Source: Leptospiraceae bacterium (GTDB lineage Bacteria; Spirochaetota; Leptospiria; Leptospirales; Leptospiraceae). Taken from it: 64,000 nucleotides of DNA. Below are positions 28,930-55,488 of this stretch, in pieces. The notes beneath the pieces are model-generated. The model saw only the letters and a program-made list of their open reading frames with translations, had not been told where the DNA came from and did no database searches. Each line of letters begins with the position of its first letter. Within the stretch, counting starts at the first letter, position 1. The position numbers and the translations under genes are program-made. The stretch spans positions 1,413,442-1,477,441 of the forward strand of contig JACKPC010000001.1 of the NCBI GenBank assembly GCA_024233835.1. The letters are read 5' to 3'.

Positions 28930-29370
28930 ATGAAGGAAGTCTTTGTTCGCTTTGTCTTATATGGTCTTACCGGTTGGTGTGTGGAGCTTGTATATACAGC
29001 TATTATCGATAGTTACCATAAGAAAGACTGGAATTTGACAGGAAAAACGTATCTCTGGATGTTTTTTGTCTATGGTTCGGCTGTTTTTTTATTTGAACCG
29101 GTTCATGAGCTTATTTTAAATTTTCCTATAATACTTCGATTTATTATCTGGTCTTTAGGAATTACAGGAATCGAGTTTATTAGCGGTTTTTTAATTAAGA
29201 AAGTTTCCGGTTCCTGTCCCTGGGATTATTCTTATAGCCGGTTTGCGATTAATGAATATATCCGCTGGGACTACTTTCCTATCTGGGCGGTTTTCGGTCT
29301 TATTTTAGAAAAACTGCATGTATTTTATGTAAGATTAAGCCCGGTACTTGTAGAATTAATATTTACTTGA
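28930..29370 (+). CDS. Small polytopic membrane protein (resembles DUF1113 / putative ABC-transporter type IV family)
   Basis: 146 aa, 4 TM. N-terminus FVLYGLTGWCVELVYTAII resembles the F.iYsF.GW..E motif of that family, recalled from memory. Low certainty. Confidence 0.4.
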   Translation: MKEVFVRFVLYGLTGWCVELVYTAIIDSYHKKDWNLTGKTYLWMFFVYGSAVFLFEPVHELILNFPIILRFIIWSLGITGIEFISGFLIKKVSGSCPWDYSYSRFAINEYIRWDYFPIWAVFGLILEKLHVFYVRLSPVLVELIFT

Positions 29371-29902
29371 GTGTTATGTATTCTAACATAGAACCAATGA
29401 AAGACAGAATCAGACCTGCCATAAAAATTCTATAGCTAATTCCTAAATAAAAAAATTTCTTTCTTTGAAGTACGAGACCACTATTGTATATATCTTTAAC
29501 CATAGCTTCATACATTTTTTCTTCGGAACGCAAAAACTCAGACATAAGTTTCAAATACTCGTCCTGGTTTATACGGTGAAAGGAACCGAAAAATAGAGGA
29601 TTTATTTCATTCGGTTTGAAGGAAGAATCTTTTCCATATTGTATGGAAGGCATAGTTGCTATGATCGCAAAAAAGGAAGATATTATCGAGAAAAATGTGA
29701 GAGCTATTAGACTATAAGAATATTCGCCTTTTTGTAGCATATTGAGGGTTAAAGTGAAGATTAAAAAAGAAGCGCCTAAGATGATGTTAGCTTTATGGTC
29801 TGCCATTGAACTGAAATGACTGGTTTGCTGGTATAGAGAACGCAGCATGTGGTCTATCTGAACACTTCCTTTTAAACCCGCAAATAAATTTTGTTTTTCC
29901 AT
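29363..29902 (-). CDS. Hypothetical membrane protein (2-4 TM) of unknown function
   Basis: 179 aa. Hydrophobic segments ANIILGASFLIFTLTL, YSLIALTFFSIISSFFAIIATM and C-terminal FYLGISYRIFMAGLILSFIG. No motif recognized. Convergent and 8-bp overlapping with the upstream gene. Confidence 0.4.
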   Translation of the reverse strand: MEKQNLFAGLKGSVQIDHMLRSLYQQTSHFSSMADHKANIILGASFLIFTLTLNMLQKGEYSYSLIALTFFSIISSFFAIIATMPSIQYGKDSSFKPNEINPLFFGSFHRINQDEYLKLMSEFLRSEEKMYEAMVKDIYNSGLVLQRKKFFYLGISYRIFMAGLILSFIGSMLEYITLK

Positions 29903-29994: not shown

Positions 29995-32900
29995 TTACTC
30001 TATGTTAAATTCTCCATTGGGAAACTCTCCAAACATTTCCGGAAAATACATGGCTTCAATTCTGGATGGTGGTAACATAAATTTTCCATCCTGATTGAGT
30101 CGGACTGTATACTCAATATTGTGGGTTCCTTCCGGGACATAGGTAAAATACTCTCTGTAAGCATCCATCCTTCTTTCTGTGAATGCAGAATATAAGCTCC
30201 AACTTTTATTATTATCCGAGCTTAAACTTTCTGAATCTCTACCCAGTCCCGAGCCCAGAATGGTTGAACCGGAAGGAATCGGATCGTTTAAGACTACCCA
30301 GGCTTTAGCTGAGTTTGCCTTGATTATAAGACGAATTTTCCACACATCTCCTTTGCTGTATTTTCCTTTGTTTTTTACCTCAACAGGAATGAGTTGCTTC
30401 GTAATGCTATAGCCCGCTGAAAAGGGTTTTTTCAATGCGATAGCTGCCCGGCTTTGAATATTTACCCAGGGCTTACCCTTTCCATCGTGTTTTATAGTAA
30501 GATTCATTTTTGATGAAGACCAGGGGAAATCATGTCTGGCTGCTGAGCGAACTTTTGACCAGGGCATTTTTTTATTTTTTCCGGCATAAGACGTTATACT
30601 GTAACCTGTTACTTTTTCCTTTTCAAATTTGGCTGCAAATTTTTCCAGTGCAAGAACTCCCCAGGCATTTGCAACAGTTAAATCCCAGGCTCCGCGTTTT
30701 TGTCGTGAAACGATTCCTCTTACAAGCCTTGGAATGTCTCGTTTCCATGTGTTCATTTCCAACAAGCTTAGAAGTAAGCGGGTTGCATTTACGTCGGAGG
30801 AAACCATAAGCCAGTATAGGTTATCTGTTTTTGCTGTACTGAAGCTCATTACGGTACCCTGCATATCCAGCCTTGCCCTGAGAATAGTTTCTACTTTATC
30901 CATTAGCATCGGTTTATGGGTAACCTGTAAGCGATTATAAATATTCCATAAGTCGATTAAAGCAGATGTCGGAAGTAGGTTGTGTATTACATCAAGAGGT
31001 TCCAGGTATTCTTTTTTTGCAAGGCCATAACGACTCAGGGCTTCAATGGCTGCTATTTTACGAATACTGAGATCCGGTGTGGATAAGACCGAATTTCTAT
31101 GGATAGAACCTGTTATAAAACCCTGCAAAGCATAGGTCATGCGACTGAAGACTTCAGGAGGAATCGGGTATGCTGCTTCTTTTGCAATAGAAAGTACGTA
31201 GGAGGTTAAAATCGGACTACCGAAAGAGAGGGATGGAAAGTATTTTATAAAACCTTCCGAATCAAGATAAGCCGGTGCTTTAGCCATGATTCTTTCCCAA
31301 TGGTCTTTTGAACGAAGACTTATCGCTTTGGAAACTTCCTGTTCAAAACAGGAGTAGGGGTAGTCTCTCATGTATTCTTTTACACCTGATAGACTGCGGA
31401 GTAAAGAGCGCGAGTAAATAATTCGAAGACCACCTTTTCCTTCTTCAGCTCCTTCCGGTTTTTCTACCGGAAGGTTATAAGTGTTTTCTAATTGTACGAT
31501 GCTTGCCTGTCTGACAGTGGGTTTTAAATAAGGTAATATTTTTTGTGATACCCGAATTGTGTCTGTTTTTCCATTTTCACTTTTGGCTGTTACTAAGTAA
31601 CTAGCTTTTTCTTTTCCCCTTGGAATTTTTATCTTCCAGGAGAATTCTTTCGCTTCCCCGGCTTGCAGAGAAAATTTATCCTGTTGTAAACCTTTAAATG
31701 CATCCTGAAGCTGGATACTTATATTTCCGCTTAAAGGTTCCTTACCGGCATTCCGCAGGGTAAAGGTTGCTGGAAAAATGTCTCCTTCTCGAATAATGGG
31801 CGGAATACCGGAGAATAACATGAGGTCTCTGGTACTACGAATCTTCGTATGCCCCTTACCGTATAATGAAGAACCTCCGATAGCCATGACGACTACTCGA
31901 AATGAGGTAAGAGAATCATTGGTGATGAAGCTAAATTCAGCTTCACCTGATGGATTTGGTTTAATACCGGTTTTCCAGTAAAGAAGAGTATCGAATAATT
32001 CCCTGGTATTTTGGGTACCTCCTCCACCTCCCTGCTTAATAGCTTTTAGTCCGAAGTGTCGTCTACCTACAACCTGCATTTGGGCAGTTGAGGTTTGCAC
32101 TGTATTACCTCTGGTTCCCATCATTTTTTCTAATACGTTCCATGATGTGTTATTCTTTAATTCTAATAATCCTTCATCCACTACAGCCACAATGAGTTCC
32201 GTATTTTTCGGAAGTTTTGATTGTATTAAAGGAGATACTTTTACTCGAATATTTGCTTTTTCTCTTACCCCGTAAACTTCTTTATCAGGTTCTACTTTCA
32301 CCTCTAATTCATGTGGCTTCCAACCAACTTTTATTTCAGCAATTCCTAATTTATAGGATGGTTTTCCCAGGTCAATAAGAGCTGTAGGACGTATGCCTCC
32401 TACACGACCCCTGACTGCCATAGCCGAAACAAAAACATTTGGCGAATAGTTGTTTTTTATAGGAATACGAATGCTCGGATTACGTCCTTTCACATTTTGT
32501 ATGTAAGAGTCAAGGATCCCCTCTCTTTCCACGGTAACCAGTACCCTCGCTTCTGAAAAGGGGATTCTAAACTGAAATTCAGCTTCTTCACCAGTTTCAT
32601 ATTTTTTTCTTACAGGAATTAAATCAGCCCTGTCATGGTCGCTGCCCGCATACCAGGAATTAGGAGATTCTATCCAAATCTCTGTATTTGAACGTGCTTC
32701 TTTTCCTGAGCTTGAAATAGTATTTGCGGAAAAGAGAATATTCCCTTCTTCCGTTGTTTTACCTTCACAGATAAGCATTCCTTTTTCATCTGTCTGACCG
32801 GAGCAAAACTCTCCTAATTTTTTTATTTCCCTATAGCTTTCATAGGAATAGAAACCACCTACGAGTCTTTTTCTGTGTGAGAAATACTTCCGGGAATACA

Positions 32901-35562
32901 TATCCACATTAACTTTCTGTCCGCGAACCGGCTTACCCCTTAGATCTAAAACCAGGGAAATAATTTTCAACTTATCTTTGGAAGCAATCCAACTATCCTG
33001 TTTAATCCCAATAACGTATTCTGTTGGATAAACCGGTATTCTTTTACTTACGGTTTGGATTTCTCCATTTGGATCTGCAAATTCTAACTCGGTCAAAACG
33101 TTATAGGGTGTATCTTTTGTGGGCAAACCACTGATTGTAATAGTTTTTCCACCGGTCTCATCAAGTTTGATTTGTTGAATCTTCTCAATTTTTAATTCAT
33201 CTTCATTTTCAGCTCTATCTGTACGGAATCTTCCCGGGATAATTTTTTCTGAATCAAAGGAGAAATCTGCATAATCAGGAAAGCTTGTATAATAATCATC
33301 TTTAACAAAATACTTAAATTTTACAGGAAGATTTCCGGCTCCTCCACCTGAAAGGTAAGAAATGCTCAGGTTCACAGGAAAATTTGTTTTTGAAACTATT
33401 TTTTCCGTTGGAACCTTTACATCAGCCTTCATTAGGGGAATTCTAAACTCCTCTACTCTAAAGCTTTCTGTACTATATTTCCTTTCATAAGAGTTATTTT
33501 TATCCTTAGGATACATAAGATAGATTTGGTATTCACCCAATTTTGCATCTTTAGGAATTTTCCAACTGGCATCAGCCGTTCTATTTGTCTCCCATTTTAA
33601 AGAAAAGCGAAATTTTTGACCGGAACCTATATGTTCGATTTCCATTAATTCCGGTACTGTATCAAGTTTCGGATAACGCATTCCTTTTCCGGTGTGTAAA
33701 CGAACCAGATTCTTTATATGAAGTTCTTCTCCGGCTCGTAATAAGCTTCGATCCAGGATTGAATGATATATTTCCTTGTTATCTATTTCTCCGGAAGAGA
33801 GGTTGAACCTCCAGTTTTCAATTCCATCTTCCCAGGAAGAATGAACAAATGAGAAATCGTTTCCTTTGCTTGCTGAAACTAAAAGGCCATTCGCATAGTT
33901 TTTATAAGAACAGTATTTCGGTTCTTTAATATTCTTTGAAGAAAATATAGCAATTCCTTCTTCATTTGTTCGGGCCTGTATCAAAACCTTATTTTCACAG
34001 TTTCGCACTTCAACTGTAGCTCCTGCAATGCCTTCACCTTTATCAAGACTTGTGACCCAAACGAGGCTATTCTCAGTACCTTTTTTTAAATGGACCGCCA
34101 TATTGGTCACGAGAGCGGAAGTTGCAACATAAGCACTTTTACCGGTTTTATTTACATGCACACCCAGAGCCGGACTGGTAAGTTCAAGTACATAAAAGCC
34201 GGGCTTTTTAAGAGGTATTCCCACTACTTCAAAAGCATTAATACCGTTCTTTCGTGGTAAGAGAAACTTCTTGCCCTGCTTTATATCTTTAAACACGGAG
34301 CGGCTTATCTTTGAGGAATATAATTTTTGAAGCCAGAAAACTATATTCTCCGGTTTCACTCCTACCTTTTTTCCTTCTAAAGGTCCAAAACTTTTAGAAT
34401 TCAGGGGGTTTAGCTGTAGGAGTCTGAGTTTTACTTTTTCTTCAATGTTTCGAACCGTAACGGGAAGTACGGGATTTGCATTCAGTTCAAGTATACCGAA
34501 TTTTGCAGAAAATTTGGCTAAAGGGGGAAAGGAGGAAATTTTCACAGACCTGGGAAAGTCTGAAGAGTTCTTTAAAATTCTACCCGCATCATCTTTAATA
34601 GAAGCCGGAATACTTAAGGTAAAATTGGTTTCCTCCGGAAAAGGGCCTGAAAAATTGATCTCTGTTACAGATGTAGGTTTTTCGGCTTTTAAGTCAAGAT
34701 CGGATTTCCAGATTTTAGAACCGGTTTGAAATTTTATTTTTAAGGCATCTTCTATAGATATAGGAGATGAGAATGATAGAGTAATCGGTAGGAGTGGAAT
34801 ACAATCACCTTTTTTAGATGCATAAGAACAATGTATGCTTGCTGTAAAATCATCCCTTGTTTTGTAATTTAAAACTTGCCTTGAAGTAGACGAAACTCCC
34901 GAAACGGATCGAATACCTGATTGCCAGATAAGGCTTACTTTTTTTCCGCTGGGAAAGGTCCTGTTAGCTTTGACGATAACTAAATTTTCCGGTATATTTT
35001 TACCATAATTAGCTTTAATGATTTCAGGTATATCTTCAGGAGAAAGGATTTGGGTATCTATAGGACTTGCAATACCTTCTACTATAAAATTAATATGATT
35101 TTCAAGAGAAGGCATATCTACAGGACCATCTACTTGTAATAAGAAGATTTGATCTTCGGAAACATCAGAGCCAATGTAGGGAGATGTATATAAAACCTGC
35201 GGTCCTCCTGTGGAAAACGAATATTTCTTTCCTCCGCGAATGGTATGACCGGAAGCTGTAGGAAAATCTTTTAAGGTAAAAGTGCATTCGTGTCCAGAGC
35301 CAAGTTTGCTTTCAAATTCGTAAAGGTAAGTTCTTTCATCTGCCCAGCGTGCTTTACCTTTTGCAGAACAGGAAATTTGAAAAATATCAGTATTTGCGGA
35401 TGGATCTCCAAAAGCAACAACCGGTTCTGAAAAAATAACTTTGACCTGCTGAATATCTTTTACTTCCCCTGTTGGAGAAAACAGGCTGAGGCCCGGAGCT
35501 GAGTATATGGAAAATGGAAGCAAAGCAAATAAAAAAAGTAAAACTCTTAAGTGAAATTTCAT
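29995..35562 (-). CDS. Bacterial alpha-2-macroglobulin family protein (thioester-containing protease inhibitor, YfhM/ECAM-like)
   Basis: 1855 aa. Signal peptide. CxEQ thioester motif (YPYSCFEQEV). Size and domain organisation typical of bacterial A2M. Confidence 0.85.
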   Translation of the reverse strand: MKFHLRVLLFLFALLPFSIYSAPGLSLFSPTGEVKDIQQVKVIFSEPVVAFGDPSANTDIFQISCSAKGKARWADERTYLYEFESKLGSGHECTFTLKDFPTASGHTIRGGKKYSFSTGGPQVLYTSPYIGSDVSEDQIFLLQVDGPVDMPSLENHINFIVEGIASPIDTQILSPEDIPEIIKANYGKNIPENLVIVKANRTFPSGKKVSLIWQSGIRSVSGVSSTSRQVLNYKTRDDFTASIHCSYASKKGDCIPLLPITLSFSSPISIEDALKIKFQTGSKIWKSDLDLKAEKPTSVTEINFSGPFPEETNFTLSIPASIKDDAGRILKNSSDFPRSVKISSFPPLAKFSAKFGILELNANPVLPVTVRNIEEKVKLRLLQLNPLNSKSFGPLEGKKVGVKPENIVFWLQKLYSSKISRSVFKDIKQGKKFLLPRKNGINAFEVVGIPLKKPGFYVLELTSPALGVHVNKTGKSAYVATSALVTNMAVHLKKGTENSLVWVTSLDKGEGIAGATVEVRNCENKVLIQARTNEEGIAIFSSKNIKEPKYCSYKNYANGLLVSASKGNDFSFVHSSWEDGIENWRFNLSSGEIDNKEIYHSILDRSLLRAGEELHIKNLVRLHTGKGMRYPKLDTVPELMEIEHIGSGQKFRFSLKWETNRTADASWKIPKDAKLGEYQIYLMYPKDKNNSYERKYSTESFRVEEFRIPLMKADVKVPTEKIVSKTNFPVNLSISYLSGGGAGNLPVKFKYFVKDDYYTSFPDYADFSFDSEKIIPGRFRTDRAENEDELKIEKIQQIKLDETGGKTITISGLPTKDTPYNVLTELEFADPNGEIQTVSKRIPVYPTEYVIGIKQDSWIASKDKLKIISLVLDLRGKPVRGQKVNVDMYSRKYFSHRKRLVGGFYSYESYREIKKLGEFCSGQTDEKGMLICEGKTTEEGNILFSANTISSSGKEARSNTEIWIESPNSWYAGSDHDRADLIPVRKKYETGEEAEFQFRIPFSEARVLVTVEREGILDSYIQNVKGRNPSIRIPIKNNYSPNVFVSAMAVRGRVGGIRPTALIDLGKPSYKLGIAEIKVGWKPHELEVKVEPDKEVYGVREKANIRVKVSPLIQSKLPKNTELIVAVVDEGLLELKNNTSWNVLEKMMGTRGNTVQTSTAQMQVVGRRHFGLKAIKQGGGGGTQNTRELFDTLLYWKTGIKPNPSGEAEFSFITNDSLTSFRVVVMAIGGSSLYGKGHTKIRSTRDLMLFSGIPPIIREGDIFPATFTLRNAGKEPLSGNISIQLQDAFKGLQQDKFSLQAGEAKEFSWKIKIPRGKEKASYLVTAKSENGKTDTIRVSQKILPYLKPTVRQASIVQLENTYNLPVEKPEGAEEGKGGLRIIYSRSLLRSLSGVKEYMRDYPYSCFEQEVSKAISLRSKDHWERIMAKAPAYLDSEGFIKYFPSLSFGSPILTSYVLSIAKEAAYPIPPEVFSRMTYALQGFITGSIHRNSVLSTPDLSIRKIAAIEALSRYGLAKKEYLEPLDVIHNLLPTSALIDLWNIYNRLQVTHKPMLMDKVETILRARLDMQGTVMSFSTAKTDNLYWLMVSSDVNATRLLLSLLEMNTWKRDIPRLVRGIVSRQKRGAWDLTVANAWGVLALEKFAAKFEKEKVTGYSITSYAGKNKKMPWSKVRSAARHDFPWSSSKMNLTIKHDGKGKPWVNIQSRAAIALKKPFSAGYSITKQLIPVEVKNKGKYSKGDVWKIRLIIKANSAKAWVVLNDPIPSGSTILGSGLGRDSESLSSDNNKSWSLYSAFTERRMDAYREYFTYVPEGTHNIEYTVRLNQDGKFMLPPSRIEAMYFPEMFGEFPNGEFNIE

Positions 35563-35960
35563 AAATCCCCCGTAATAATAAGCTCAAGTTAATTGTTTAT
35601 ACTTGGTTTTGTAAATCAGAATTTTAAAGAAACGAATTGAATTCTTATAGACAGGAAACTTAAGCTCTATAGTATATTTTCATGGAGAGAAAACCCGGGA
35701 TTCTGAAAGTTTTTCTTACAGCGTGTCTTAAAATAGACTTATCTATAAAAGAGAAGCAAGCTGTAAGAGCCTGCTGCTTCATTTTCAGACAGGCTCTTAT
35801 ACTATCCCTTATACTCAATATTTTTTTAGTTTTATACCAGAGTTCTAGTTTTCGAATTCGTCTCAGGTTCGTAGCTTATTATCTACTGGGATTTGAACCA
35901 CCCGGGAAAATACCCTCTTTTCAGAACGATCTCCTTTTAAGCTCTTTTGAGCCGGTGTCT

Positions 35961-36944
35961 ATGCTCGATAACCGGGATAAAAGATTGAATAAACTGGCTA
36001 AATATCCTGTATTCGAGGCACACGGGCATCTGGGTAAATTTTTCAAAACTGAGCCTGAAAAGTTTTTCAAGCAATTGGATGAACTCAATATACAGGGCTT
36101 TGCTAATTTGAATTTTCAAACAGGAGAGGAGTTCTTAAACTTACAAAATGAATATAAGGATAATAGAATGTTCTTTTTTGCTGGTTTTAACTGGGAACAT
36201 TTAAAAAAGAAAGAGAAAAATTATGTTTCTCTTATGCTCTCTGACCTGAGGGCAGATATAAAAAATGGAGCTAAGGGGATTAAGCTCTGGAAAAATTTTG
36301 GTCTTAATTTAAAAGATCTCAATGGAAATCGCTTGCATATCGATGAACCATCCTTAAAGCCTTTATTTGAGGAATGTGAAAAAGAAAAACTGATTGTAGC
36401 CATTCATACGGTAGATCCTCCCAGTTTTTTCCTGCCTATAGATGAAACAAACGAACGTTATCCGGAATTGATACGAAGGCCTGAGTGGTCCTTTACCGGG
36501 ACTGATTTCCCTTCAAGAGAAACTGTAATTCAGGAAAGAAATGCCTTATTTAAAAGGCATCCCGGCTTACGATTTATTGCCGTACACATGGCTGCATCCG
36601 GGCACAATTTGGAAGAAGTTTCTTTCTTACTGGATAATTTTCCCAATGTATATGTGGATATAGCGGCAAGAATTGATGAACTCGGAAGGCAACCCTATAC
36701 GAGCCGGAGATTCTTTACAAAGTATCAGGACAGGATTCTTTTTGGAACAGATGGTCCTCCGGATAGAAAGAAGTTGGAAATTTATACTCGATTTCTGGAA
36801 ACAAAGGATGAATATTTTGACTATTTTCCGTCACATAAACCCAGAAAAGGATTTTGGAAGATACACGGAATCGGTCTTGAAGAGGAAGTATTAAAAAAAC
36901 TTTATTATGAAAATGCAATGAATCTTTTTAAGCTAAGAAATTGA
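35961..36944 (+). CDS. Amidohydrolase-2 family (TIM-barrel metal-dependent hydrolase) protein
   Basis: The ORF opens at 35682 but the first about 90 codons are not protein-like. Met at 35961 places the HGH (HxH) metal motif about 20 aa from the N-terminus as in Amidohydro_2. Further ligands are HTVDP, HMAAS and FGTDGP. Confidence 0.6.
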
Positions 36945-38653
36945 GGGAAAACATGTTTTTTAAAAAAGAGAGTGATAGAGATATTTACAGTCTGGAATTC
37001 GTGAGGACGAAAGCGGATTTTTTAGATTTTACAGAAAAGGATTTAAAGTTACTAAATGAACTAAAGCCCTTTGTAGATATGAGAAAGGAAGAGATAGTTA
37101 AGAACTTTTATACTAAAATTTTAAAAACTGAAAAAGCTAAGAGAATTATCGAAAAAAATTCATCTATTGCTAAATTAGAATTTACTTTTGTACAATACTT
37201 AAATTCTATTCATAGAAAAACTTTAGATAAAGAATATATACAATATATTTCCAGAATTGCCAGAAAGCACTATGAAATTAATCTTCCCATAGATTTCTAT
37301 TTAGGTTCTTATGAAGTATTAAGAGAGAGTTTATTAAAGTATCTTTATAAATACGTCAAATCCGGAAACAAGTTTATACTCTATATGAATGCCTTAAATA
37401 AACGTTTTTCTCTGGATATGCAACTGGTAGTAGAATACTATTATGATATATTTTTCGGACTTAACCTGGAAAAAGCATCAGAGATATTAGAATATGTGAC
37501 CGGTCTGGATACCATACAGGATCTGGTTCATTTTTCAGATGAGCAGGATCAAAAGATTCATAGTATCCATTTCTCTATTGAGACTCTTAATTCTGGTATC
37601 CGGGATATTAATAGTCATGCAGAAATTATTACTGCAAAAGCAGAGGAGAGTGAAACAGTTATTTATAAAAGTGAAAAAGAAGTGAATAAGTCTATACGGG
37701 AATTTCAGAACTCAACGGAATTAATCGAAGAGAATATAAAAGCATTCCAGACCTTTAACATTAAGCTACAAAATATTTCTAAACTCGTAAAACTTATTAC
37801 TTCGATTTCCAAGAGGACAAATTTATTAGCTTTAAATGCCAGTATAGAAGCGGAAAGAGCCGGAGATTACGGGAAAGGTTTTTCTGTGGTTGCTGAAGAA
37901 ATTCAGAAGATGGCAGAGCAAATTCAAAATTCAGTACAGAAAATGTACAATGAAATTAATGAGCTTCTTGAAGAGTCCGATGAAATTACCAAACAGGGGA
38001 GTATTTCTTTAAAATCACTTCAGGAAAATCGAAATTCAGTATCTAATTCCAGCAAAGCAGTTCATGGAGTTTTGGACATCACGCGATCTATGCTAAATGC
38101 AAACGAGGGGATTTCGAAAACATTAACCCAGCAATTAGAATTGTCCAGGAAAGTTACGAATGACGCTTCCGAGATAAATACATTGGCAGATACTCTGAAA
38201 AAAGTCTCAAAAGATACAGGGGCTTCTATTTATAGATTGAGTTGTTTGTTGGATGAATTTCGTTTATCCATTCTTCCTCAAAATACAAATATTCGGTTTC
38301 AGAGATATTTACAGCTTGCCAAAATGGATCATTTACTTTGGAAGTGGAAAATATATAATTATATGATGGGTTTTGAAATATTAGATCCGAATAATATAGC
38401 AGATAGTAATACCTGTCGACTGGGTGTCTGGTATAATAAATTGCAGATAAATAAAACTACAGATACTGCAAGAGAATTTGAGAAACATCATAAAGATTTA
38501 CACGCAGTTGCAAAAGCAGCTGTTTTAAGCATTAAGAATTCAGATATAGACCTGGCAAAAAGGCAAATGAAAGAACTGGAGACTATTTCTAAAGAACTTT
38601 TAATTCTTTTAGAACGAATGAATAATGTATTAGAAAATGAGAACATAATTTAA
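36941..38653 (+). CDS. Soluble globin-coupled methyl-accepting chemotaxis protein (HemAT-like) with additional C-terminal CZB zinc-binding domain
   Basis: N-terminus aligns with the HemAT sensor globin ([20 protein letters not shown]...; [29 protein letters not shown] versus HemAT [24 protein letters not shown], proximal His retained). MCP signature [36 protein letters not shown]-terminal CZB pattern H..W...(n)...CRLGVWY...HH..H. No TM. 4-bp overlap with the upstream amidohydrolase. Confidence 0.8.
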
Positions 38654-38771: not shown

Positions 38772-39050
38772 TTACATCAAGGGAGAAACCTTCAATGGCT
38801 TTGGATTGAACCTTCCCTGTTTTTCCGATGCTGCCATAAAAGTAAGTTCTCCCTCTATCAGTTGGAAGGGTGCACCTTCCGGCAGGCTCAAATAATCCTC
38901 GAAGTTATAGTTATTTCCTTCCAGTATCTCGGCCATGAGGAATTGCTGTGAAGCCTCATCAAAAAAGATGAGCTTTCCCTCGAAGAAAGCCCAGTTTCTT
39001 CCACCCAAAAGTTCTTCGGGGTCAAATGGCCTGAGTAACTTATCTGACAT
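38772..39050 (-). CDS. Small hypothetical protein (92 aa)
   Basis: ORF between convergent MCP and ankyrin genes. No motif. Could be spurious. Confidence 0.25.
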   Translation of the reverse strand: MSDKLLRPFDPEELLGGRNWAFFEGKLIFFDEASQQFLMAEILEGNNYNFEDYLSLPEGAPFQLIEGELTFMAASEKQGRFNPKPLKVSPLM

Positions 39051-39122: not shown

Positions 39123-40895
39123 TTATTGAAAGTATTTGTAAAGATCCGAATACTTATATTTTTTAGCCAGACTGTAGGCGTCCTTACTTTTAGAACTGTG
39201 AACATCTATTTTTAAGTCTACCAGTTCTTTTACTGCTTCCGGGTTATTATCTTCGACTGCATACCAGAGTGCATTCTTACCCTCTTTATCTATACTATTA
39301 ATATCTCCTCCATTCTGAGCCAGAACTGTAACTGCCTTCCAATGTTTTTGTTTAAACGCCAGGATAATGGGAGTTTCATTTTCAGGCTCTTTTTTATGAA
39401 GATCGATCCCTTGAGAAATTAAATAACGAAGTAAATCTGCATTCCCATGATGGGCGGCATGGTGAATCATTTCCCATCCCGAATCGTCTTTGTATGTTGC
39501 ATCTGCTTTATTCTGAATCAGTAATTTAACTATTTCCGGACCGTATTCTGTATAACTATTCAATGCCAGAAATATAGCTGTTTGTCCCCATTTTGTTCGA
39601 GCATTAATATCAACTTTTTTTGAAATCAAAAATTGAATAAATTTTGCAGTTCCATACTCAGCTCCATAATGAATCAAACCTGAATCTTTTTCATCGATTA
39701 CATTTAGGTCGGATAAATCTTTCAGGTAATCTACCACATTGCTTTTTTGTGCATATAGAGCAAGCATTAAGGGTGTAGAACCATTTGCTGCTTTTGCATT
39801 AACATCAGCTTTTTTCTGAATAATTTTTTTTACTATATCAAGATAGCCAAATTGTGCACTTAGATGTAAGAGGCTTTGTCCATCAGCATTTTTGTAATTG
39901 ATGTTTGCAGTATTATCGAGAAGAAATGCGGCAATTTTTCTTTTTTCTTCATCCTCGTTTTGCAGGGCCAGGGAAAGGGGAGTTTCCTTACTTTTGGTTA
40001 CGGAATTTATATCTACCTTGTTTTTTGCAAAATAAGATACCATAGCCAGATCGCTATTTTGTACTGCATAGTGGAGTAAGCCAAATCCATCATCGTCTCT
40101 GTCTGATAAGTTAAATTTTTTCTCTAATAGTAGATGAACTATTTCCCCATCTGTATTTGCTTGAACCGCATATAGCAGGACACTCTGTCCTGTCTGGTTT
40201 TTAATTTTCTCGATATTGGGAATTCGAGTCAGTAAGTCTTTTACAACTTCTATCTTTCTGAGTCCGATAGCTTCAAATAAAAAGGCATAATCATTATAAC
40301 TTATTAGTTTCTCATCAAAGGAGAGGAAGGTTTTATAAGCCTCATAATTACTGGTATCACTTAAAGTTAGAGAAAAGGCCGTCTTGCCATTCGCATCCGG
40401 AGTAGAAATATCTACACCTTTTTCAAGGAGGAATTTAATTATATCTACGGCTCCTATTTTGGAAGCTTCCATAAGTAGGGTATTCCCTTCATAATCCTTG
40501 GAGTTGATGTCTCTTTTTGAGGGTAACAGAGCCTGTAGTTTTTTAAGATCATTATTTCTGATTAGTTTGAATAAATCCTGATTTTTGTTGAATTTGTATC
40601 TGTAATATAAAGTTTTTGTTCCGGAATAGGGAAGTAAGATTGTATCTAATATAAAACTAAAAGGGACATCAAATAGATAAAAGAAAGTGGGAGGGCCGTA
40701 ATAGTGGTAGGAGGGTGTTGGGGAAAAACCAATAGTTAAGCCTTCTCTGGCACCTTTATAGATTAAGGAATAATCATTAGGAGTTGGAGAATAATTCTGC
40801 AACACAATAACGCTCATACAACCATTCAAAAGAAAAGATAGTCCGAGAAGGATTAGAAGTATAAATTTGTTTTTCATTAACATACGAAATACCAT
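39123..40895 (-). CDS. Ankyrin-repeat lipoprotein (about 10 ANK repeats)
   Basis: Signal peptide with lipobox-like LLNGC. Repeated ANK consensus (G.T.L..A...G...iv..Ll..gadin..d..G.T.L). 590 aa. Confidence 0.85.
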   Translation of the reverse strand: MVFRMLMKNKFILLILLGLSFLLNGCMSVIVLQNYSPTPNDYSLIYKGAREGLTIGFSPTPSYHYYGPPTFFYLFDVPFSFILDTILLPYSGTKTLYYRYKFNKNQDLFKLIRNNDLKKLQALLPSKRDINSKDYEGNTLLMEASKIGAVDIIKFLLEKGVDISTPDANGKTAFSLTLSDTSNYEAYKTFLSFDEKLISYNDYAFLFEAIGLRKIEVVKDLLTRIPNIEKIKNQTGQSVLLYAVQANTDGEIVHLLLEKKFNLSDRDDDGFGLLHYAVQNSDLAMVSYFAKNKVDINSVTKSKETPLSLALQNEDEEKRKIAAFLLDNTANINYKNADGQSLLHLSAQFGYLDIVKKIIQKKADVNAKAANGSTPLMLALYAQKSNVVDYLKDLSDLNVIDEKDSGLIHYGAEYGTAKFIQFLISKKVDINARTKWGQTAIFLALNSYTEYGPEIVKLLIQNKADATYKDDSGWEMIHHAAHHGNADLLRYLISQGIDLHKKEPENETPIILAFKQKHWKAVTVLAQNGGDINSIDKEGKNALWYAVEDNNPEAVKELVDLKIDVHSSKSKDAYSLAKKYKYSDLYKYFQ

Positions 40896-40969: not shown

Positions 40970-43891
40970 ATGATGGATGAATTGAATCAAGATTATTATG
41001 AATTATTTGAAAATGCACCAAATGCCTGTATTATTTTGAAAGATAATTCTATAATTGTTGTTAATAAAACATTTTCTGATTTAGTAAAACTTCCAAAAAA
41101 CAAAATTATTAAACGGAAAATTACTCATTTTATACATAAAAAGTTTTTAAATATTTTTTTTTCTAAGCAGAGCCGAGTTAAGCAAGGGGAAAAGGTTTCG
41201 GGTTTTGAAATTAAAATACAGAGTCCTGCAATAGGTCCTCTCCGGGTATTTGTTGATATGAAGCTTCAAAACAATCGGGATGACGTATATGTTTCGATTT
41301 TCAATATTCAAAAATTCAAAACTAAAGAATATCATACAAAATTAAGTGAAGATAAATACAGGAATTTGTTAGAAAGCTTTACAGATGTTGTTATAACTAT
41401 AGATGATAAAAGTATAGTTACGTATTGGAACAAAGAAGCTGCAAGAATATCCGGTATAGATGAGAAAGATATTTTAGGAAAAAAGATTGAACAAATTTTT
41501 CCTTTAACCGAAGAACTATTAGAGCTTAGAACGCTTTTAGACACACTCCTTCATTGTAAAACACCTATCAGTTTTGAACAAACAATCCCCTTCAAGACAT
41601 ATAATAGAATTTATGAAGTAAATGTATTTCCAAATCGTAAAGGAATCAGTATTCATGCCAGGGATAAAACAGAAAGAATCAGGATAGAAAAGCAGCTAAG
41701 CTTTCAAAGCCAGGTATTGCAAAATATGATTATCGGTCTTCATATAGTCTTTGTAAAAGATAATACGATAGCATATACAAATTTGGTTATGGAAGAAATG
41801 TTTGGTTATGATAAGGGAGAGCTTATAGGAAAACATGTAAGTATTTTAAACGATCCAAATAATCCTGAGATTCATGAGATTATTATCAATTCTTTAATTA
41901 AGAGTGGGAAGTGGGAAGGAGAAGTTTTAAATAAGAGAAAAGATGGAAGCTTATTTTGGAGTCGGGCAAAGGTTTCCGAGTTTGATCACTATGAGTACGG
42001 GAGGGTATGGATTTCTATACACGAAAACATTGATGATATTAAAAATACCAGTATCAGATTGGAGGAAAGTCAAAGAGAATTAGAGCTTATTTATAATAAT
42101 ATTCCCGTACTTGTCAGTCACGTAGATAGGAACTATCGATATAAATTTGCGAATCGGGCTTATATAAATTTCTTCGGGAGAAATGATATAATAGGAAAAA
42201 AAATTGCTGAGATCATTGGAGAAGAATCTTTCCAGCGTTCTGAAATAAATCTACAAAAGGCTTTTGAAGGAAATATTGTTGTATATGATAATATACTTTA
42301 TGATAAAGATAAGCTTTCCCATGATGTAGAAGTAACTTATATTCCTCATTTTGAGAATGGAGAAAATCGCGGTATTTTTATTATTGTATCAGATATAACG
42401 GTTAGGAAAAAATACGAAGAAAGTATTATAAAGTCCAAAGAAATTGCGGAATCTGCTAATCGTACAAAGAGCGAATTTTTGGCTAATATGAGCCATGAAA
42501 TCAGAACTCCTATGACATCCATTTTAGGTTTTGCAGAACTTATAGATCAAAAAACGAGAGAGCCCGAATTAAAAAAATATACAGAAAGAATACATAAGAG
42601 CGGAAATATTTTATTAAACCTCATAAATGATATTTTAGATTTATCAAAGATTGAAGCCAATAAAATTGAGATTGAACTAAAACCGGTTAACTTAAAAGAA
42701 ATGATAAATGAGTTATTACTTATCTTTCAAGAAATTGTCAATCGAAAAGGAATTCGTTTAAGTCTGGATTACCCCAAAAGTTTATCTCGTAATTTTTTGC
42801 TCGATGAGTTTCGGATTCGACAGATACTATTAAACTTAATTGGTAATGCAATAAAATTTACAGATGCGGGTAGTGTAAAAATAAAGGTAAGTATCAGAAG
42901 AAAAGAAGAAGGCTATAATAACGCTAAATTACAGGTACAGGTTATAGATACCGGTATCGGAATTGAGAAAGGACAATTATCCAGCATTTTTGATTCTTTC
43001 TCACAGGGAAAAACTAAAGACTCTAACAAATACTCAGGAACCGGATTGGGCTTAAGTATATCAAAGAAATTAGCGAAATTAATGGGAGGGGATATTTGGG
43101 TTTATAGTAAGCCTAATTTTGGTTCGATTTTTACACTTCAGATAGATAAAGTTTCAATCATCTCACAATCTGAATTTAACTTAATTCCTTCAAATAGTTC
43201 AGAAGAAATAGTGACTAAATTTGGTAAAACCAAAGTTTTAATTGTGGATGACGATGATATTAATCGTGAGTTAATTATCACATACTTGCAAAAAATCCCT
43301 GAATTGGAATATATAGAAGCTATTGATGGAGAAGAAGCGATTGATAAAGCTGAAAAGTGTTATCCGGATTTGATTATTATGGATTTAAACCTGCCAAAAA
43401 TCAATGGTTTTGATGCAATTAAACATCTTAAATCATTACATAAAACAAAAAATATTCCTATCATTGCTGTAACTGCTTCTGTATTGAATTTTTCAAAAGA
43501 AGAAGTGGAACATTTTTCCGATGCTTATTTATATAAGCCTCTTGTAATGCGTGATTTGCTGAGGCAGCTTAAAATTCTTCTGAGATCGGAAGAAGTGCTT
43601 ACTCAAGTAGTTGAAGATAAATTTGATAAAGAAAAGGCACGAATTATATATGATGTTCTACAAAAAAAGTTATCAAAAAAGTATAATGAAATTACAGTAT
43701 ATTATAATATTTCAAGGATTATAAGTTTTGCCGAGAAAGCCAAAAAAATTTCTATAAATTATGATTATTCTTCTTTGAAAGACTGGTCTGAGGAGCTACT
43801 AAAGGCAGCTAATTCCTTTGATATAGTTACCTTAAAAGAAGAGTTGAGTAAATTTCCACAGTGCTTGGATAAACTAAAAAATATGATCTAA
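40970..43891 (+). CDS. Hybrid sensor histidine kinase (multiple PAS domains, HisKA, HATPase_c, REC, C-terminal extra domain)
   Basis: H-box SHEIRTPMTSILGFAELI. N/G boxes (LIGNAIKFT, DTGIGIEK, GTGLGLSISKKLAKLMGG). Receiver VLIVDDDDINRELI...DLIIMDLNLPKINGF. PAS-like segments in the N-terminal 480 aa. 973 aa. Confidence 0.85.
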   Translation: MMDELNQDYYELFENAPNACIILKDNSIIVVNKTFSDLVKLPKNKIIKRKITHFIHKKFLNIFFSKQSRVKQGEKVSGFEIKIQSPAIGPLRVFVDMKLQNNRDDVYVSIFNIQKFKTKEYHTKLSEDKYRNLLESFTDVVITIDDKSIVTYWNKEAARISGIDEKDILGKKIEQIFPLTEELLELRTLLDTLLHCKTPISFEQTIPFKTYNRIYEVNVFPNRKGISIHARDKTERIRIEKQLSFQSQVLQNMIIGLHIVFVKDNTIAYTNLVMEEMFGYDKGELIGKHVSILNDPNNPEIHEIIINSLIKSGKWEGEVLNKRKDGSLFWSRAKVSEFDHYEYGRVWISIHENIDDIKNTSIRLEESQRELELIYNNIPVLVSHVDRNYRYKFANRAYINFFGRNDIIGKKIAEIIGEESFQRSEINLQKAFEGNIVVYDNILYDKDKLSHDVEVTYIPHFENGENRGIFIIVSDITVRKKYEESIIKSKEIAESANRTKSEFLANMSHEIRTPMTSILGFAELIDQKTREPELKKYTERIHKSGNILLNLINDILDLSKIEANKIEIELKPVNLKEMINELLLIFQEIVNRKGIRLSLDYPKSLSRNFLLDEFRIRQILLNLIGNAIKFTDAGSVKIKVSIRRKEEGYNNAKLQVQVIDTGIGIEKGQLSSIFDSFSQGKTKDSNKYSGTGLGLSISKKLAKLMGGDIWVYSKPNFGSIFTLQIDKVSIISQSEFNLIPSNSSEEIVTKFGKTKVLIVDDDDINRELIITYLQKIPELEYIEAIDGEEAIDKAEKCYPDLIIMDLNLPKINGFDAIKHLKSLHKTKNIPIIAVTASVLNFSKEEVEHFSDAYLYKPLVMRDLLRQLKILLRSEEVLTQVVEDKFDKEKARIIYDVLQKKLSKKYNEITVYYNISRIISFAEKAKKISINYDYSSLKDWSEELLKAANSFDIVTLKEELSKFPQCLDKLKNMI

Positions 43892-43908
43892 TATGAGGAT
43901 GGCTTAGA

Positions 43909-44988
43909 ATGAAAAAAAGACAGGAAATATTATTAGTAGATGATATGCCGCAGAATATTCAAATATTAGGAAATATCTTAGCAGCAAAAGGATACGAGAT
44001 AACTATTGCTATGAGTGGCAAAGAAGCACTCAATACTCTAAAAAATGCAAAACCGGACTTAATTTTACTCGATATAAATATGCCGTTTATGGATGGATAT
44101 GAAACTTTTCAGGAAATTAAGAAGATGCCTTCCTGTTCTGACATTCCGATCATCTTCGTGACGGCCAAATCAGAGCAATCAGAAAAGATAAAAGGTTTGG
44201 AAATGGGAGCCAGTGATTATATTACTAAACCTTTTGACACCTATGAATTATTATTGAGAGTGAAACTTCAATTGGAATTAAAAAACCAAAAGGAAAATTT
44301 AGAAAAAAAACAGCATAAAATTTTAGAACTACTCAGGGTTCTGCTGCATGACTTAAGTAATCCGCTTTCCGGATTAAAGTCTGCTTTTGAAATTGCAGAA
44401 ACAGATCCAAAAGCATTTATACAGTTTATGCCGCATTTATCTTCAAGTCTTCAATCCTGCTTTGACATCATTGATAGCGTTAGGAATATGAGAGCTTTAG
44501 AGGATGGTAAACTAGTATTAAAAGATTCTGAGATAAAATTATATGAAACCGTTGCAAATTCTATCAAGCTAATGGAACAAAAGATAAATGATAAACGACT
44601 TACCTGTATAAATCGGGTTCCGCAAAATATCACCATCAAATTAGATCCCACGGTATTTATGTATTCGGTATTTATGAATTTACTGAGCAATGCTATTAAG
44701 TTTTCCGAAGAAGGAAAAACTATTATAATAAAAGCTAAAGTAATAAAAAATAAGGTTAAAATGACAGTAAAGGATGAGGGTATCGGTATGCCTGAAAGTT
44801 TATTGGAAAATATATTTGATTATTCCAAGCCCACAAGTCGCAGCGGTACAAAAGGAGAAATCGGAACCGGTTATGGCATGCCTCTTATAAAAAATTTTAT
44901 GGATGAATTTGGTGGAAAAATTTATATACAGTCCAGAGAAGAAGAGCCCAATAAGGGAACCAAAGTAATCTTATATTTAAATAACTGA
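43909..44988 (+). CDS. Response-regulator/histidine-kinase fusion (N-terminal REC, then HisKA-like and HATPase_c)
   Basis: REC: ILLVDDMPQNIQ...DLILLDINMPFMDGYE...IFVTAK. H-box-like LRVLLHDLSNPLSGL. ATPase boxes LLSNAIKFSEEGK, DEGIGMP and GTGYGMPLIKNFMDEFGG. Confidence 0.8.
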   Translation: MKKRQEILLVDDMPQNIQILGNILAAKGYEITIAMSGKEALNTLKNAKPDLILLDINMPFMDGYETFQEIKKMPSCSDIPIIFVTAKSEQSEKIKGLEMGASDYITKPFDTYELLLRVKLQLELKNQKENLEKKQHKILELLRVLLHDLSNPLSGLKSAFEIAETDPKAFIQFMPHLSSSLQSCFDIIDSVRNMRALEDGKLVLKDSEIKLYETVANSIKLMEQKINDKRLTCINRVPQNITIKLDPTVFMYSVFMNLLSNAIKFSEEGKTIIIKAKVIKNKVKMTVKDEGIGMPESLLENIFDYSKPTSRSGTKGEIGTGYGMPLIKNFMDEFGGKIYIQSREEEPNKGTKVILYLNN

Positions 44989-46596: not shown

Positions 46597-47403
46597 ATGC
46601 GACATAAATCACTTAAAAAAGGAACTCTTTTTGTTATTTTTTTCCTTTGTTTCGGTTTTTCTCTCCTGGCTGAATCCGAAACCGAGCGTTTAAATGACCT
46701 TCTAAAAAAAGAATTGGAGCCGGACAAGCAGGAAAGTCCGGTGGACAAAAAAGAAACCAAAGACAAAAACCCAAAAGAAACCAAAGAAATAAATCCGGTA
46801 GAAGAGCGTTATAAGCCTAAAGAAGAGGGTAGTTCTTTAACCTGGGTCTTATTTAAAATTATACTGGTTTTCGGTTTTCTAAGCGCTGTTATGTACTATG
46901 CTCTGAAATTTCTCTCCAAAAGTCGCATTGCGGGTTTTCCGGTAAAAGATTCTATGCAGGTTCTGGCCAGCCTTCCTCTGGCCCCGGGTAAACAATTGCA
47001 GATCGTAGATGTCGAAGGCATCCTTATGGTTTTAGGTGTGGCAGATGGTTCTATCAACCTGATAACTGAGATAACTTCACCTGAAATTAAAGAAAGAATT
47101 TATATGAAACGCGATGAAATTCAGCCGGTAGAAGAAAATTTTTTAGAAATATTGTTGAAAAATTTGAAAACAGGTATCAAATTGCCAGCCGAAGCCAAAG
47201 TAGATGAGACTCCTGTTGTTAAGCGAGAGGAAGGGTTTCGTGTAAAGGAAGAGCCGGAAACTGTAGACTTTTATTCCCGGTCAGAGGCTCAATCAGAGGA
47301 AGACGTTGTGAATGAAATCAAACAAAGACAGTTGGATAGGTTGGAAAAATTAAAGAAAGAACGGAACCAGCTTGAAAAGAAAAATAAAACACCGGGCAAA
47401 TAG
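46597..47403 (+). CDS. Putative flagellar biosynthesis protein FliO/FliZ-like (membrane protein immediately upstream of fliP)
   Basis: Assignment by position (2-bp gap to fliP) and topology (single internal [25 protein letters not shown]). No strong sequence motif. Larger (268 aa) than typical FliO. Confidence 0.4.
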
Positions 47404-47405
47404 TC

Positions 47406-48206
47406 ATGAACTTTAGCTTTTCACTTACTGAAACAAAAAAGATTATCTGGCCACTTGTGGGTTTCGGTTTATTTTTTCTTTTATCCTCGGCTATTTTTCC
47501 CCAGGATACCGGTACCCGGATTCCAATACCTAACTTGAATTTTAATATCAACGAAGCCAAGAATCCCAAAGAAACCAGTCTTTCTTTGATGATTCTTTTT
47601 CTTATTACCATCCTTTCTATAGCACCGGCCATTATCATGTCTGTCACCTCTTTCACCAAGATAGTCATAGTGATGGATTTTGTAAGAAGAGCCCTCGCGA
47701 TTCAAAACCTTCCCCCTAACCAGGTGATGATGGGTCTGGCTGTTTTTATGACTTTTTTTATTATGGCACCTACCCTGAAAGATGTTAATGAAAAAGCTTT
47801 GACGCCTTATCTGGATGGTAAAATCGATACAAGCAAGTTCTTTGATAGAACGATGATACCTCTCCGAAAATTTATGATAAAACAAATTGGAGATAAGGGC
47901 ACTAAGGATGTAGCATTGTTTTTGAAAATAGGGAAAATTAAAGACGTTAAGTCTTATGATGATGTCCCTTCCTATGTCCTGGTTCCGGCCTTTATGCTTT
48001 CAGAAATAAAAAAGGCCTTTATCATCGGGATTTACTTATTTATACCTTTTGTAGTGGTTGACCTTGTGGTGGCGGCCACTCTTTTATCTATGGGGCTTAT
48101 GATGCTTCCACCGGTAATGATAAGTCTACCTTTTAAGTTAATTCTTTTTGTCCTGGTGGATGGTTGGAACCTCTTGGTTTATGAGTTAGTCAGGAGCTAT
48201 AAATGA
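47406..48206 (+). CDS. fliP: Flagellar biosynthetic protein FliP
   Basis: Conserved FliP core [40 protein letters not shown]. 266 aa. Confidence 0.9.
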
Positions 48207-48466
48207 CAGATGTAGATGTAATAACGCTTTTACGGGAGAGTTTGTTTATCACGATGAAAGTTTCTTCTCCCATATTGTTGGTGGCTCTTGTGGTGGGTCT
48301 TTTTATCGGGATTTTACAAACTACCACATCGATTCAGGAGCCAACCATCGCTTTTGTTCCCAAGCTTTTTGCGATTTTCATTGTGATCGTAATTTTTGCA
48401 GCCTGGATTGTAAGGGTAATGATGGATTATACTACCATTATGTTTATGATGATTGAAAAAATATGA
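48203..48466 (+). CDS. fliQ: Flagellar biosynthetic protein FliQ
   Basis: 87-aa two-TM protein between fliP and fliR with 4-bp overlaps. FliQ-like sequence ([28 protein letters not shown]). Confidence 0.88.
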
Positions 48467-49248
48467 TAGAAACCTTTGTAGAACATTTTCAATTATTTAT
48501 GCTACTTTTTGCAAGAATCGTGGGCCTATTTAGTTCCGCACCTATTTACGCTTCTGCAGCAATGAAAGTTTCTACAAGGATGATTCTGGCTTTTTTTATT
48601 TCTCTGGTTCTGTTTCCTGTGTCTGCTAAATTTTTGCCCGGGGTTCCTACTCATATGGGTGACTATTACCTTTTAATCTTATCCGAATTACTCGTGGGAC
48701 TATTTATGGGTTTTATGGTAAGTATCATCTTTGCTTCCTTTCAGATGGCAGGTCAGTATTTTTCGGTTCCTATAGGTTTTGGTTATACGGAAGTTTTAGA
48801 CCCGGTCAGCCAATCGAATTTACCCGTTATCAGTACTTTAAAGAATCTTCTTGGAATGATGTTATTCCTGGTACTCGGTGCTCACCGAGTTTTGATTGAA
48901 TCCTTACATTATTCCTTTGAAAAGGTGCAGGTTTTACAATTTACAGCAGAAATTAATCAGGGGCTTTTTAAAGCTTTGCAGCTTGCCATCGGTTCGATGT
49001 TTGTAGTTGCTTTCCAAATCTCTCTTCCTATTCTGGGAATTCTCATTCTGGTTTCTATTGCCGAAGCCCTTATGGGGAAAGCAGCTCCGCAGTTAAATAT
49101 CCTGCAACTGGCATTCCCTACAAAAATTGCAATCGGTCTTTCTGTTTTGATTATTGTAAGTCCTTTTGTTATAAAACAGATGGAAAATGCTATTGTGATT
49201 GCTTTTGATAGGTTAAATATCCTTCTCCGGGAGTGGCCTGCGGGTTAG
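48463..49248 (+). CDS. fliR: Flagellar biosynthetic protein FliR
   Basis: 261-aa polytopic membrane protein in canonical position between fliQ and flhB. Confidence 0.88.
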   Translation: MIETFVEHFQLFMLLFARIVGLFSSAPIYASAAMKVSTRMILAFFISLVLFPVSAKFLPGVPTHMGDYYLLILSELLVGLFMGFMVSIIFASFQMAGQYFSVPIGFGYTEVLDPVSQSNLPVISTLKNLLGMMLFLVLGAHRVLIESLHYSFEKVQVLQFTAEINQGLFKALQLAIGSMFVVAFQISLPILGILILVSIAEALMGKAAPQLNILQLAFPTKIAIGLSVLIIVSPFVIKQMENAIVIAFDRLNILLREWPAG

Positions 49249-49249
49249 T

Positions 49250-52521: not shown

Positions 52522-52549
52522 TATTTATTCAGAGATATAGAGGAAAAAA

Positions 52550-53830: not shown

Positions 53831-53844
53831 GATTTCCGGGTAGT

Positions 53845-54759: not shown

Positions 54760-54814
54760 AGGTAAGATTCTGCAAATTAAGTTCATCATATTTCTTTCTG
54801 TCCTGGCCTTTATC

Positions 54815-55237: not shown

Positions 55238-55488
55238 AAAAATTGATTGTACAAATTTACCTTTTAAATTTACTATTAAAATATCCTGATAAAACCTGAG
55301 TGCAGGACATGAGGATTTTCCTAAAAATTAGGAAGGTCTACAAATTTTTTGATTATTTTTGCTACATAATATAAAAAAAAGACTATCCTTTTTTTTTATA
55401 TTCAATAAGGTAGATGTGAATTTGTTATCTGCACTCTAAGAGATAAATACAAGAAAATCGGGGTTTCTATAAGAGAGTCAGAGTAAGT

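Follow-up and report, generated by a model that had tools for sequence, protein, structure and literature searches.

A predicted soluble receptor combining globin, MCP and CZB domains, encoded next to an amidohydrolase gene in a Leptospiraceae bacterium

Can a single cytoplasmic chemoreceptor read the state of a haem and the state of a zinc-cysteine site together? This question is raised by a gene on contig JACKPC010000001.1 of a Leptospiraceae bacterium (assembly GCA_024233835.1), located in a stretch of 64,000 nucleotides (nt) at positions 1,413,442 to 1,477,441 of the forward strand. The whole of this stretch is called the window here, and all coordinates refer to it. Two open reading frames (ORFs) on the same (+) strand span the interval of interest, the first at 35682-36944 with 420 amino acids (aa) and the second ending at 38653. 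The first encodes a hydrolase, and the second a methyl-accepting chemotaxis protein (MCP) with an N-terminal sensor globin and a C-terminal chemoreceptor zinc-binding (CZB) domain. An earlier note on this DNA, made from the sequence alone, had described the second product as a soluble transducer and the two genes as a coupled operon. In our assessment the receptor is, with a probability of roughly 0.7, a cytoplasmic, homodimer-type globin-coupled-sensor chemoreceptor with a C-terminal CZB domain of the type found in TlpD of Helicobacter pylori, integrating two inputs.

The domain architecture was assigned with hmmscan against Pfam, a check that the earlier note had proposed. All three domain matches lie far above their gathering cut-offs, with 113.5 bits for Protoglobin (PF11563, cut-off 25), 89.5 bits for MCPsignal (PF00015, cut-off 34.6) and 47.4 bits for CZB (PF13682, cut-off 29.4). 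The CZB match is C-terminal to the MCP domain, at aa 464-528 of a 570-aa form of the protein; residues are numbered throughout on the 566-aa form. No transmembrane segment is predicted in the receptor, where the highest Kyte-Doolittle 19-residue window is 0.82, in line with the soluble protein described before. The three motif strings previously quoted for the receptor are all found in the translation. Hidden Markov model, sequence-profile and structure-prediction evidence concur on a soluble transducer with HemAT-like globin, MCP and C-terminal CZB domains, and in this respect the earlier description holds. The features of the receptor gene are listed below.

36953..38653, + strand: receptor gene, 566 aa from the ATG at 36953, soluble product, identical to GenBank MCP5499549.1.
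37013..37444, + strand: sensor globin (Protoglobin), aa 21-164, from the Pfam match, the alignment to HemAT-Bs and the AlphaFold2 model.
37109-37111, + strand: distal Tyr53, codon verified.
37184-37186, + strand: Thr78, codon verified.
37268-37270, + strand: proximal His106, codon verified.
37511..38272, + strand: MCP signalling hairpin, AlphaFold2 helices aa 187-302 and 304-440, tip near Asp305 (37865-37867).
37703-38182, + strand: Pfam MCPsignal match.
38330..38524, + strand: CZB zinc-binding domain, aa 460-524, from the Pfam match and the match of the family profile to the CZB domain of DgcZ.
38330-38332, + strand: predicted zinc ligand His460, aligned with a DgcZ ligand.
38414-38416, + strand: predicted zinc ligand Cys488, aligned with a DgcZ ligand.
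38489-38491, + strand: predicted zinc ligand His513, aligned with a DgcZ ligand.
38501-38503, + strand: predicted zinc ligand His517, aligned with a DgcZ ligand.

Receptor residues 25-161 align without gaps to the sensor domain of HemAT-Bs, the haem-based aerotactic transducer of Bacillus subtilis (1OR4, E 2.7e-9, phmmer against PDB). In this alignment Tyr53, Thr78 and His106 fall on Tyr70 (B10), Thr95 (E11) and His123 (F8) of HemAT-Bs, and the claim of a HemAT-like N-terminus with the proximal His kept is thus upheld. Tyr B10 and Thr E11 form the O2-stabilising network of HemAT, and His F8 is its proximal ligand, according to a 2026 review (PMC13401364). A full-length AlphaFold2 model, built on 35 homologues, shows an all-helical hairpin with a mean predicted local distance difference test (pLDDT) of 81.7. 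Its globin part matches 1or4_B with a template modelling score (TMt) of 0.90 and a root-mean-square deviation (rmsd) of 1.3 Å over 150 columns, and the structure search also returned the sensor globins AfGcHK, GsGCS and BpeGReg. Across 35 aligned sequences Tyr53 is nearly invariant, and the proximal His is kept in most and lost in four. With the globin domain alone as query, a word-indexed search gave no match but a fragment of the same protein.

The MCP hairpin matches 2CH7 and 3JA6 in PDB by sequence (E about 1e-17), and the Thermotoga receptors 2ch7 and 3g67 by Foldseek. The highly conserved MCP signature that had been pointed out is present in the translation, and the 21-residue core of the tip is invariant in the homologue alignment, with the kinase-interaction tip as in classical MCPs.

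The C-terminal region was matched to the CZB domain of Escherichia coli DgcZ (3T9O) by a profile of the family, with an E value of 6e-4 and all four zinc ligands aligned. The isolated CZB region gave nothing relevant by phmmer against PDB, and DgcZ was reached only with the family profile. Of the four residues, His460 does not vary among the homologues, and the other three (Cys488, His513 and His517) hardly vary. The Cys motif of the receptor, corresponding to the CxLGxW motif of α3, reads CRLGVWY, and Arg at position 2 together with Gly at position 4 is the pattern of soluble CZB chemoreceptors (Perkins et al., PMC8262984). A C-terminal CZB pattern with a 3His/1Cys site, as proposed in the earlier note, is supported by both the Pfam score and the alignment of the four residues to the DgcZ ligands. 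In TlpD and DgcZ the zinc-bound Cys is oxidised by hypochlorous acid (HOCl; PMC8262984). For a separate model of the CZB domain (pLDDT 87.6) the best match in PDB is 3t9o_B, at modest scores (E 0.034, template modelling score 0.55-0.58), and generic helical bundles follow close behind. The structure-prediction check suggested before is clear for the globin fold and modest for the CZB fold.

These domains suggest how two inputs might be combined. The N-terminal globin would bind haem b through His106, and Tyr53 and Thr78 would stabilise the O2 (possibly also NO or CO) that it takes up. The globin dimer would change with its ligand state, and this change would pass down the helical hairpin to act on CheA/CheW at the tip, close to Asp305; the rotation of the periplasmic flagella would be biased as a result, producing aerotaxis. 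In an MCP hairpin the two ends meet, and the CZB four-helix bundle would for this reason share the distal end with the globin. Zinc would be held there by His460, Cys488, His513 and His517. Its state might change when the metal is lost or when HOCl-like oxidants convert Cys488 to a sulfenate, as has been shown for TlpD and DgcZ, and in both cases the same hairpin would be expected to shift. The receptor would in this way merge its O2 input with an oxidant or zinc-homeostasis input into one kinase-control output.

A total of 4,332 relatives of the receptor were found in 5.8 billion clustered proteins. About 100 of the best 120 of these 4,332 possess the same three Pfam domains, with 94-99% query coverage and 25-31% identity, and the organisms named among the best 120 are Brevibacillus, Paenibacillus, Anoxybacillus, Bacillus, Metabacillus, Microaerobacter and other Bacillota. 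Full-length relatives in GTDB species genomes, scanned with a two-sequence alignment, come from Bacillota only (Brevibacillus, Paenibacillus, Sporosarcina, Bacillus and others), the remainder being generic MCPs; the GTDB genome scan with the single receptor protein gave no relative. It follows that this collection includes neither the source species nor the organism of P0242, the nearest relative. Globin is listed among the domains of CZB-containing proteins in the legend of Fig. 6A of Perkins et al. 2021, and soluble 'TlpD-like' CZB chemoreceptors constitute the largest CZB subgroup, with 45.6% of 10,140 sequences (PMC8262984). The combination of globin, MCP and CZB is already catalogued and common in Bacillota, and is not a new class of system; to call it an uncommon architecture, as had been done, was an overstatement.

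The nearest relative, P0242, came to light when 1.84 billion representatives were searched exhaustively with HMMER. It is a metagenomic protein of 572 aa (locus L011:10001-11719) with the same three domains, 32% identity over the full length and 2 gaps, and it is followed in the HMMER ranking by HemAT-like proteins of about 430 aa. By these comparisons the receptor appears as an outlier in its family. The receptor ORF is intact and identical in independent assemblies. Recent horizontal transfer was considered and left no compositional signal, as the GC content of the gene (31.3%), its GC content at third codon positions (GC3) and its codon-usage distance are host-like, within the range of the neighbouring genes. 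An ancient transfer from or to Bacillota is possible. What makes the receptor stand out is its spirochaete host and the missing canonical methylation motif.

Several observations weigh against a two-input receptor of the kind proposed. The canonical MCP methylation consensus is [ASTG][ASTG]xx[EQ][EQ]xx[ASTG][ASTG]. Applied as a regular expression, which would miss a non-canonical site, this consensus has no match in the receptor or in P0242. One or two such motifs occur in 28 of 34 Bacillota homologues, at the conserved positions ~220 and ~402, and a C-terminal CheR/CheB-binding pentapeptide is absent from the receptor. Classical adaptation by CheR/CheB, and perhaps the coupling to the flagellar Che system, is uncertain, because both the receptor and its nearest relative lack a canonical match. 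Moreover, either sensor can apparently be dispensable in the family and degenerate independently, since some members have no proximal His and others no CZB Cys and two His; the former are the Anoxybacillus-type homologues P0073, P0079, P0103 and P0106 (alignment A1), and the latter the metagenomic homologues P0047 and P0093. The CZB model resembles DgcZ modestly, and a four-helix bundle is a fold with many structural matches. The proposed contact of the globin with the CZB domain is an expectation from topology. Neither cheA nor cheW was found in the window, and the literature yielded no experimental study or biochemical data on any protein with the globin, MCP and CZB combination.

The CZB domain is still kept in P0047 and P0093, the two homologues without the Cys and two of the His, and this suggests that a structural role can suffice. 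The alternative that survives best builds on this observation: the receptor would be a single-input aerotaxis receptor with the globin as its sole sensor, and the CZB domain, constitutively stapled by zinc at the distal end of the hairpin, would serve as a structural cap or for dimerisation and send no signal of its own. HemAT functions with no CZB domain at all (PMC13401364), and the zinc affinity of DgcZ is subfemtomolar, so that the site could simply stay filled (PMC8262984). We nevertheless regard a single input as unlikely, since the four ligands and the C-R-L-G-x-W pattern are strictly kept in the receptor, in P0242 and in nearly all homologues, and it is through this very Cys that HOCl acts on both of the CZB clusters studied by experiment (PMC8262984).

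A receptor outside the flagellar system is less probable still. It might serve an alternative Che-like pathway, act as a methylation-independent regulator, for instance of gene expression or cyclic di-GMP, or be a decaying and poorly coupled acquisition. The lack of a canonical methylation motif and of the pentapeptide would suit this, as would the absence of che genes nearby and the origin of all named full-length relatives, and of all those from the reference-genome scan, in Bacillota. The Pfam MCP score of 89.5 bits is also low compared with the 115-145 bits of HemAT-like and Bacillota relatives. However, the kinase-interaction tip is invariant relative to classical MCPs, the ORF is intact in the independent assemblies with host-like codon usage, and flagellar genes are abundant in the window; a role apart from the flagella is accordingly judged improbable.

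The two-input chemoreceptor, the reading that we prefer, can be extended tentatively. The receptor and P0242 might form a divergent branch apart from the Bacillota proteins, which would have dropped canonical methylation-based adaptation and become a true two-input cytoplasmic receptor, reading the haem (O2/NO) and zinc-Cys (HOCl or zinc) states jointly through globin and CZB domains that touch each other directly where the hairpin has its distal end. We hold this extended form to be possible and rather doubtful. If it is true, a spirochaete would possess one sensor for both aerotaxis and oxidant taxis, and no sensor of this type has ever been characterised by experiment. HemAT accounts for O2 sensing, and TlpD and DgcZ for HOCl and zinc sensing; their integration at one end of a hairpin is the question that the receptor raises. 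The soluble, well-predicted 566-aa receptor, or its more tractable homologues from Brevibacillus and Paenibacillus, would lend itself to studying how cytoplasmic chemoreceptors integrate signals. The PAS-haem receptor Aer2 is known from Leptospira interrogans, and the receptor described here would give the Leptospiraceae a second candidate type of O2 receptor beside it.

The gene in front of the receptor has been proposed as its metabolic partner, and this makes the extent of both genes and the sequence of their junction relevant. The features concerned are as follows.

35682..36944, + strand: Amidohydro_2 (PF04909) gene, 420 aa, Pfam 79.2 bits, identical to the GenBank metagenome-assembled genome (MAG) protein P0121, annotated with 420 aa.
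35778..35834, + strand: hydrophobic N-terminal anchor or signal-anchor of the hydrolase, aa 33-51, Kyte-Doolittle 19-residue window 2.26.
36943..36947, + strand: GAGGG Shine-Dalgarno-like site, read from the sequence, overlapping the TGA stop of the hydrolase and lying 5 nt before the receptor ATG.

The junction, read directly, is A-TTGA-GGGAAAAC-ATG. The hydrolase stop is the TGA at 36942-36944, overlapped by a TTG at 36941-36943, and the four bases at 36941-36944 are TTGA and not the ATGA that had been reported, although a TTG does overlap the stop as described. A start at this TTG would yield a receptor of 570 aa, the length given in the earlier note. The likely start is the ATG at 36953, which gives 566 aa and an intergenic gap of 8 nt; it is preferred because the GAGGG site stands at 5-nt spacing, the gene callers chose it and the N-termini of the homologues (MF.KK) line up with it. 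Public assemblies of the same organism have the gene called from this ATG, with 566 aa and the 8-nt gap, and GenBank records the same length for MCP5499549.1, named 'MAG: CZB domain-containing protein [Leptospiraceae bacterium]'.

The assignment of the upstream ORF to the amidohydrolase-2 family was correct, as the Amidohydro_2 score indicates, and the HxH motif and C-terminal Asp that go with this profile of TIM-barrel metal-dependent hydrolases are present. The start at 35961 given for it is an internal Met (Met94), and the orthologues conserve about 60 further N-terminal residues. An alignment of 12 orthologues (A2, n=12), mostly from Leptospiraceae MAGs and 40-58% identical to the 420-aa form, reveals conserved residues upstream of Met94, including the hydrophobic anchor and the invariant G70 and P91. 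The hydrolase was therefore taken to start at 35682, in agreement with the GenBank annotation. The hydrophobic segment is kept in 12 of 12 aligned orthologues, and the hydrolase is predicted to be membrane-anchored. H114-x-H116, H242, H302 and D357 are invariant in the orthologues. A profile of the hydrolase family had no match in PDB, so that no solved relative is detectable by sequence, and the single protein had none in NCBIfam; no substrate is proposed for this reason. A membrane-anchored Amidohydro_2 subfamily of 385-420 aa is conserved across Leptospiraceae MAGs, and members with ~45% identity are found in MAGs of Planctomycetes and Acidobacteria.

The genes on either side are encoded on the other strand: upstream lies an alpha-2-macroglobulin-like gene, downstream a 92-aa ORF. 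The transcription unit therefore comprises the hydrolase and the receptor only. Judged from the 8-nt gap, the two genes are likely co-transcribed. There is no terminator-like site between them, and promoter and terminator scans gave weak consensus matches only, with nothing decisive on an internal promoter.

In other Leptospiraceae assemblies the hydrolase orthologue (55-63% identity) adjoins a Lon protease gene, followed by an OmpL1 or a Pyr_redox (pyridine-nucleotide disulfide oxidoreductase) gene, and never a receptor. The neighbours of the receptor homologues in Microaerobacter and Brevibacillus and of P0242 are unrelated, and tblastn with the hydrolase found an Amidohydro_2 relative at 0 of 86 fetched receptor-homologue loci. 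Among the loci compared, the adjacency of hydrolase and receptor is seen in this organism only. The hydrolase is probably a lineage-specific neighbour and not a functional partner of the receptor, and the pairing looks accidental. A functional module of both, in which a substrate or product of the enzyme or its redox state would be tied to taxis, is very improbable: the two genes do lie on one strand 8 nt apart, with the Shine-Dalgarno-like site overlapping the stop and no terminator-like site between, but the hydrolase orthologues precede different genes in other Leptospiraceae, none of the 86 loci holds an Amidohydro_2 relative, P0242 adjoins unrelated genes, and the hydrolase bears a membrane anchor whereas the receptor is cytoplasmic. 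Co-expression of an enzyme with a sensor, as proposed in the earlier note, therefore stands as likely co-transcription; their meaningful coupling does not, in view of the missing ATGA overlap and the absence of the pairing elsewhere, and this proposal should not be carried forward.

The wider window contains genes for motility and respiration, namely nuoH-N, motA, a second MCP, a FliN-domain gene, a PAS hybrid histidine kinase and the following flagellar export cluster.

46597-56289, + strand: flagellar export cluster with fliO, fliP, fliR, flhB, flhA, flhF, a gene for an flhG-like ParA/MinD ATPase and a sigma factor gene, probably fliA.

This context fits a motile, respiring organism, in which an aerotaxis receptor makes sense. 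The motA gene lies at 9373-10212, the second MCP, which has 527 aa and no recognised sensor domain, at 11815-13398, and the FliN-C-domain gene at 16531-17637. Downstream of the receptor, the region 40970-44988 (+) encodes a 973-aa multi-PAS hybrid histidine kinase and then a protein with response-regulator and HATPase_c domains; both genes have 30-33% GC and are very AT-rich like the receptor gene.

Other neighbours were also noted. The alpha-2-macroglobulin-like ORF (1855 aa, 29995-35562, - strand) is divergent from the hydrolase, and the public annotation of the same contig gives it bMG3, MG2 and A2M_BRD domains. A 179-aa ORF at 29363-29902 (-) matches the Pycsar effector family PycTM (PF18967) with 76.8 bits; no cyclase gene was recognised beside it, the upstream gene on that strand being the alpha-2-macroglobulin-like ORF. 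The 92-aa ORF (38772-39050, - strand), which precedes an ankyrin gene, has no family match, is also called in the public assemblies and is convergent with the receptor. The ankyrin gene (39123-40895, - strand), likewise convergent with the receptor, encodes a 590-aa protein with a hydrophobic N-terminus and with ankyrin repeats (Ank_2, 297 bits) over nearly all of its length.

Four known systems can be compared with the receptor. It resembles HemAT-Bs (1OR4/1OR6) in being soluble, with an N-terminal sensor globin followed by an MCP hairpin, in keeping the distal Tyr (B10), Thr (E11) and proximal His (F8), and in a predicted fold that superposes at an rmsd of 1.3 Å. In contrast, HemAT ends after the MCP domain, at 432 aa and without CZB; the identity of the two globins is only about 23%, and it is the receptor described here that lacks the canonical methylation motif. 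TlpD, one of the 'TlpD-like' soluble receptors of Perkins et al. 2019/2021, shares with it a cytoplasmic MCP with a C-terminal 3His/1Cys CZB domain and the Arg 2 and Gly 4 of the Cys motif, but belongs to a host-adapted species of Campylobacterota, whereas the receptor comes from a Leptospiraceae MAG. To our knowledge the N-terminal region of TlpD is not a globin.

The CZB domain of DgcZ (3T9O/4H54) aligns its ligands H22, C52, H79 and H83 with H460, C488, H513 and H517 of the receptor, and it is the top structural match for the model of the receptor CZB domain. It differs in being N-terminal and in controlling a GGDEF cyclase rather than an MCP, and the identity is about 16%. The Bacillota proteins with Protoglobin, MCPsignal and CZB, for example those of Brevibacillus agri, Paenibacillus thiaminolyticus, Anoxybacillus flavithermus and Microaerobacter geothermalis, have the same domain order, a length of 562-593 aa, 94-99% query coverage, an almost indel-free hairpin and the same conserved ligands, and are annotated only as 'methyl-accepting chemotaxis protein' or 'protoglobin domain-containing protein'. 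They differ from the receptor in their phylum, in an identity of 25-31% and in that most of them carry two canonical methylation motifs.

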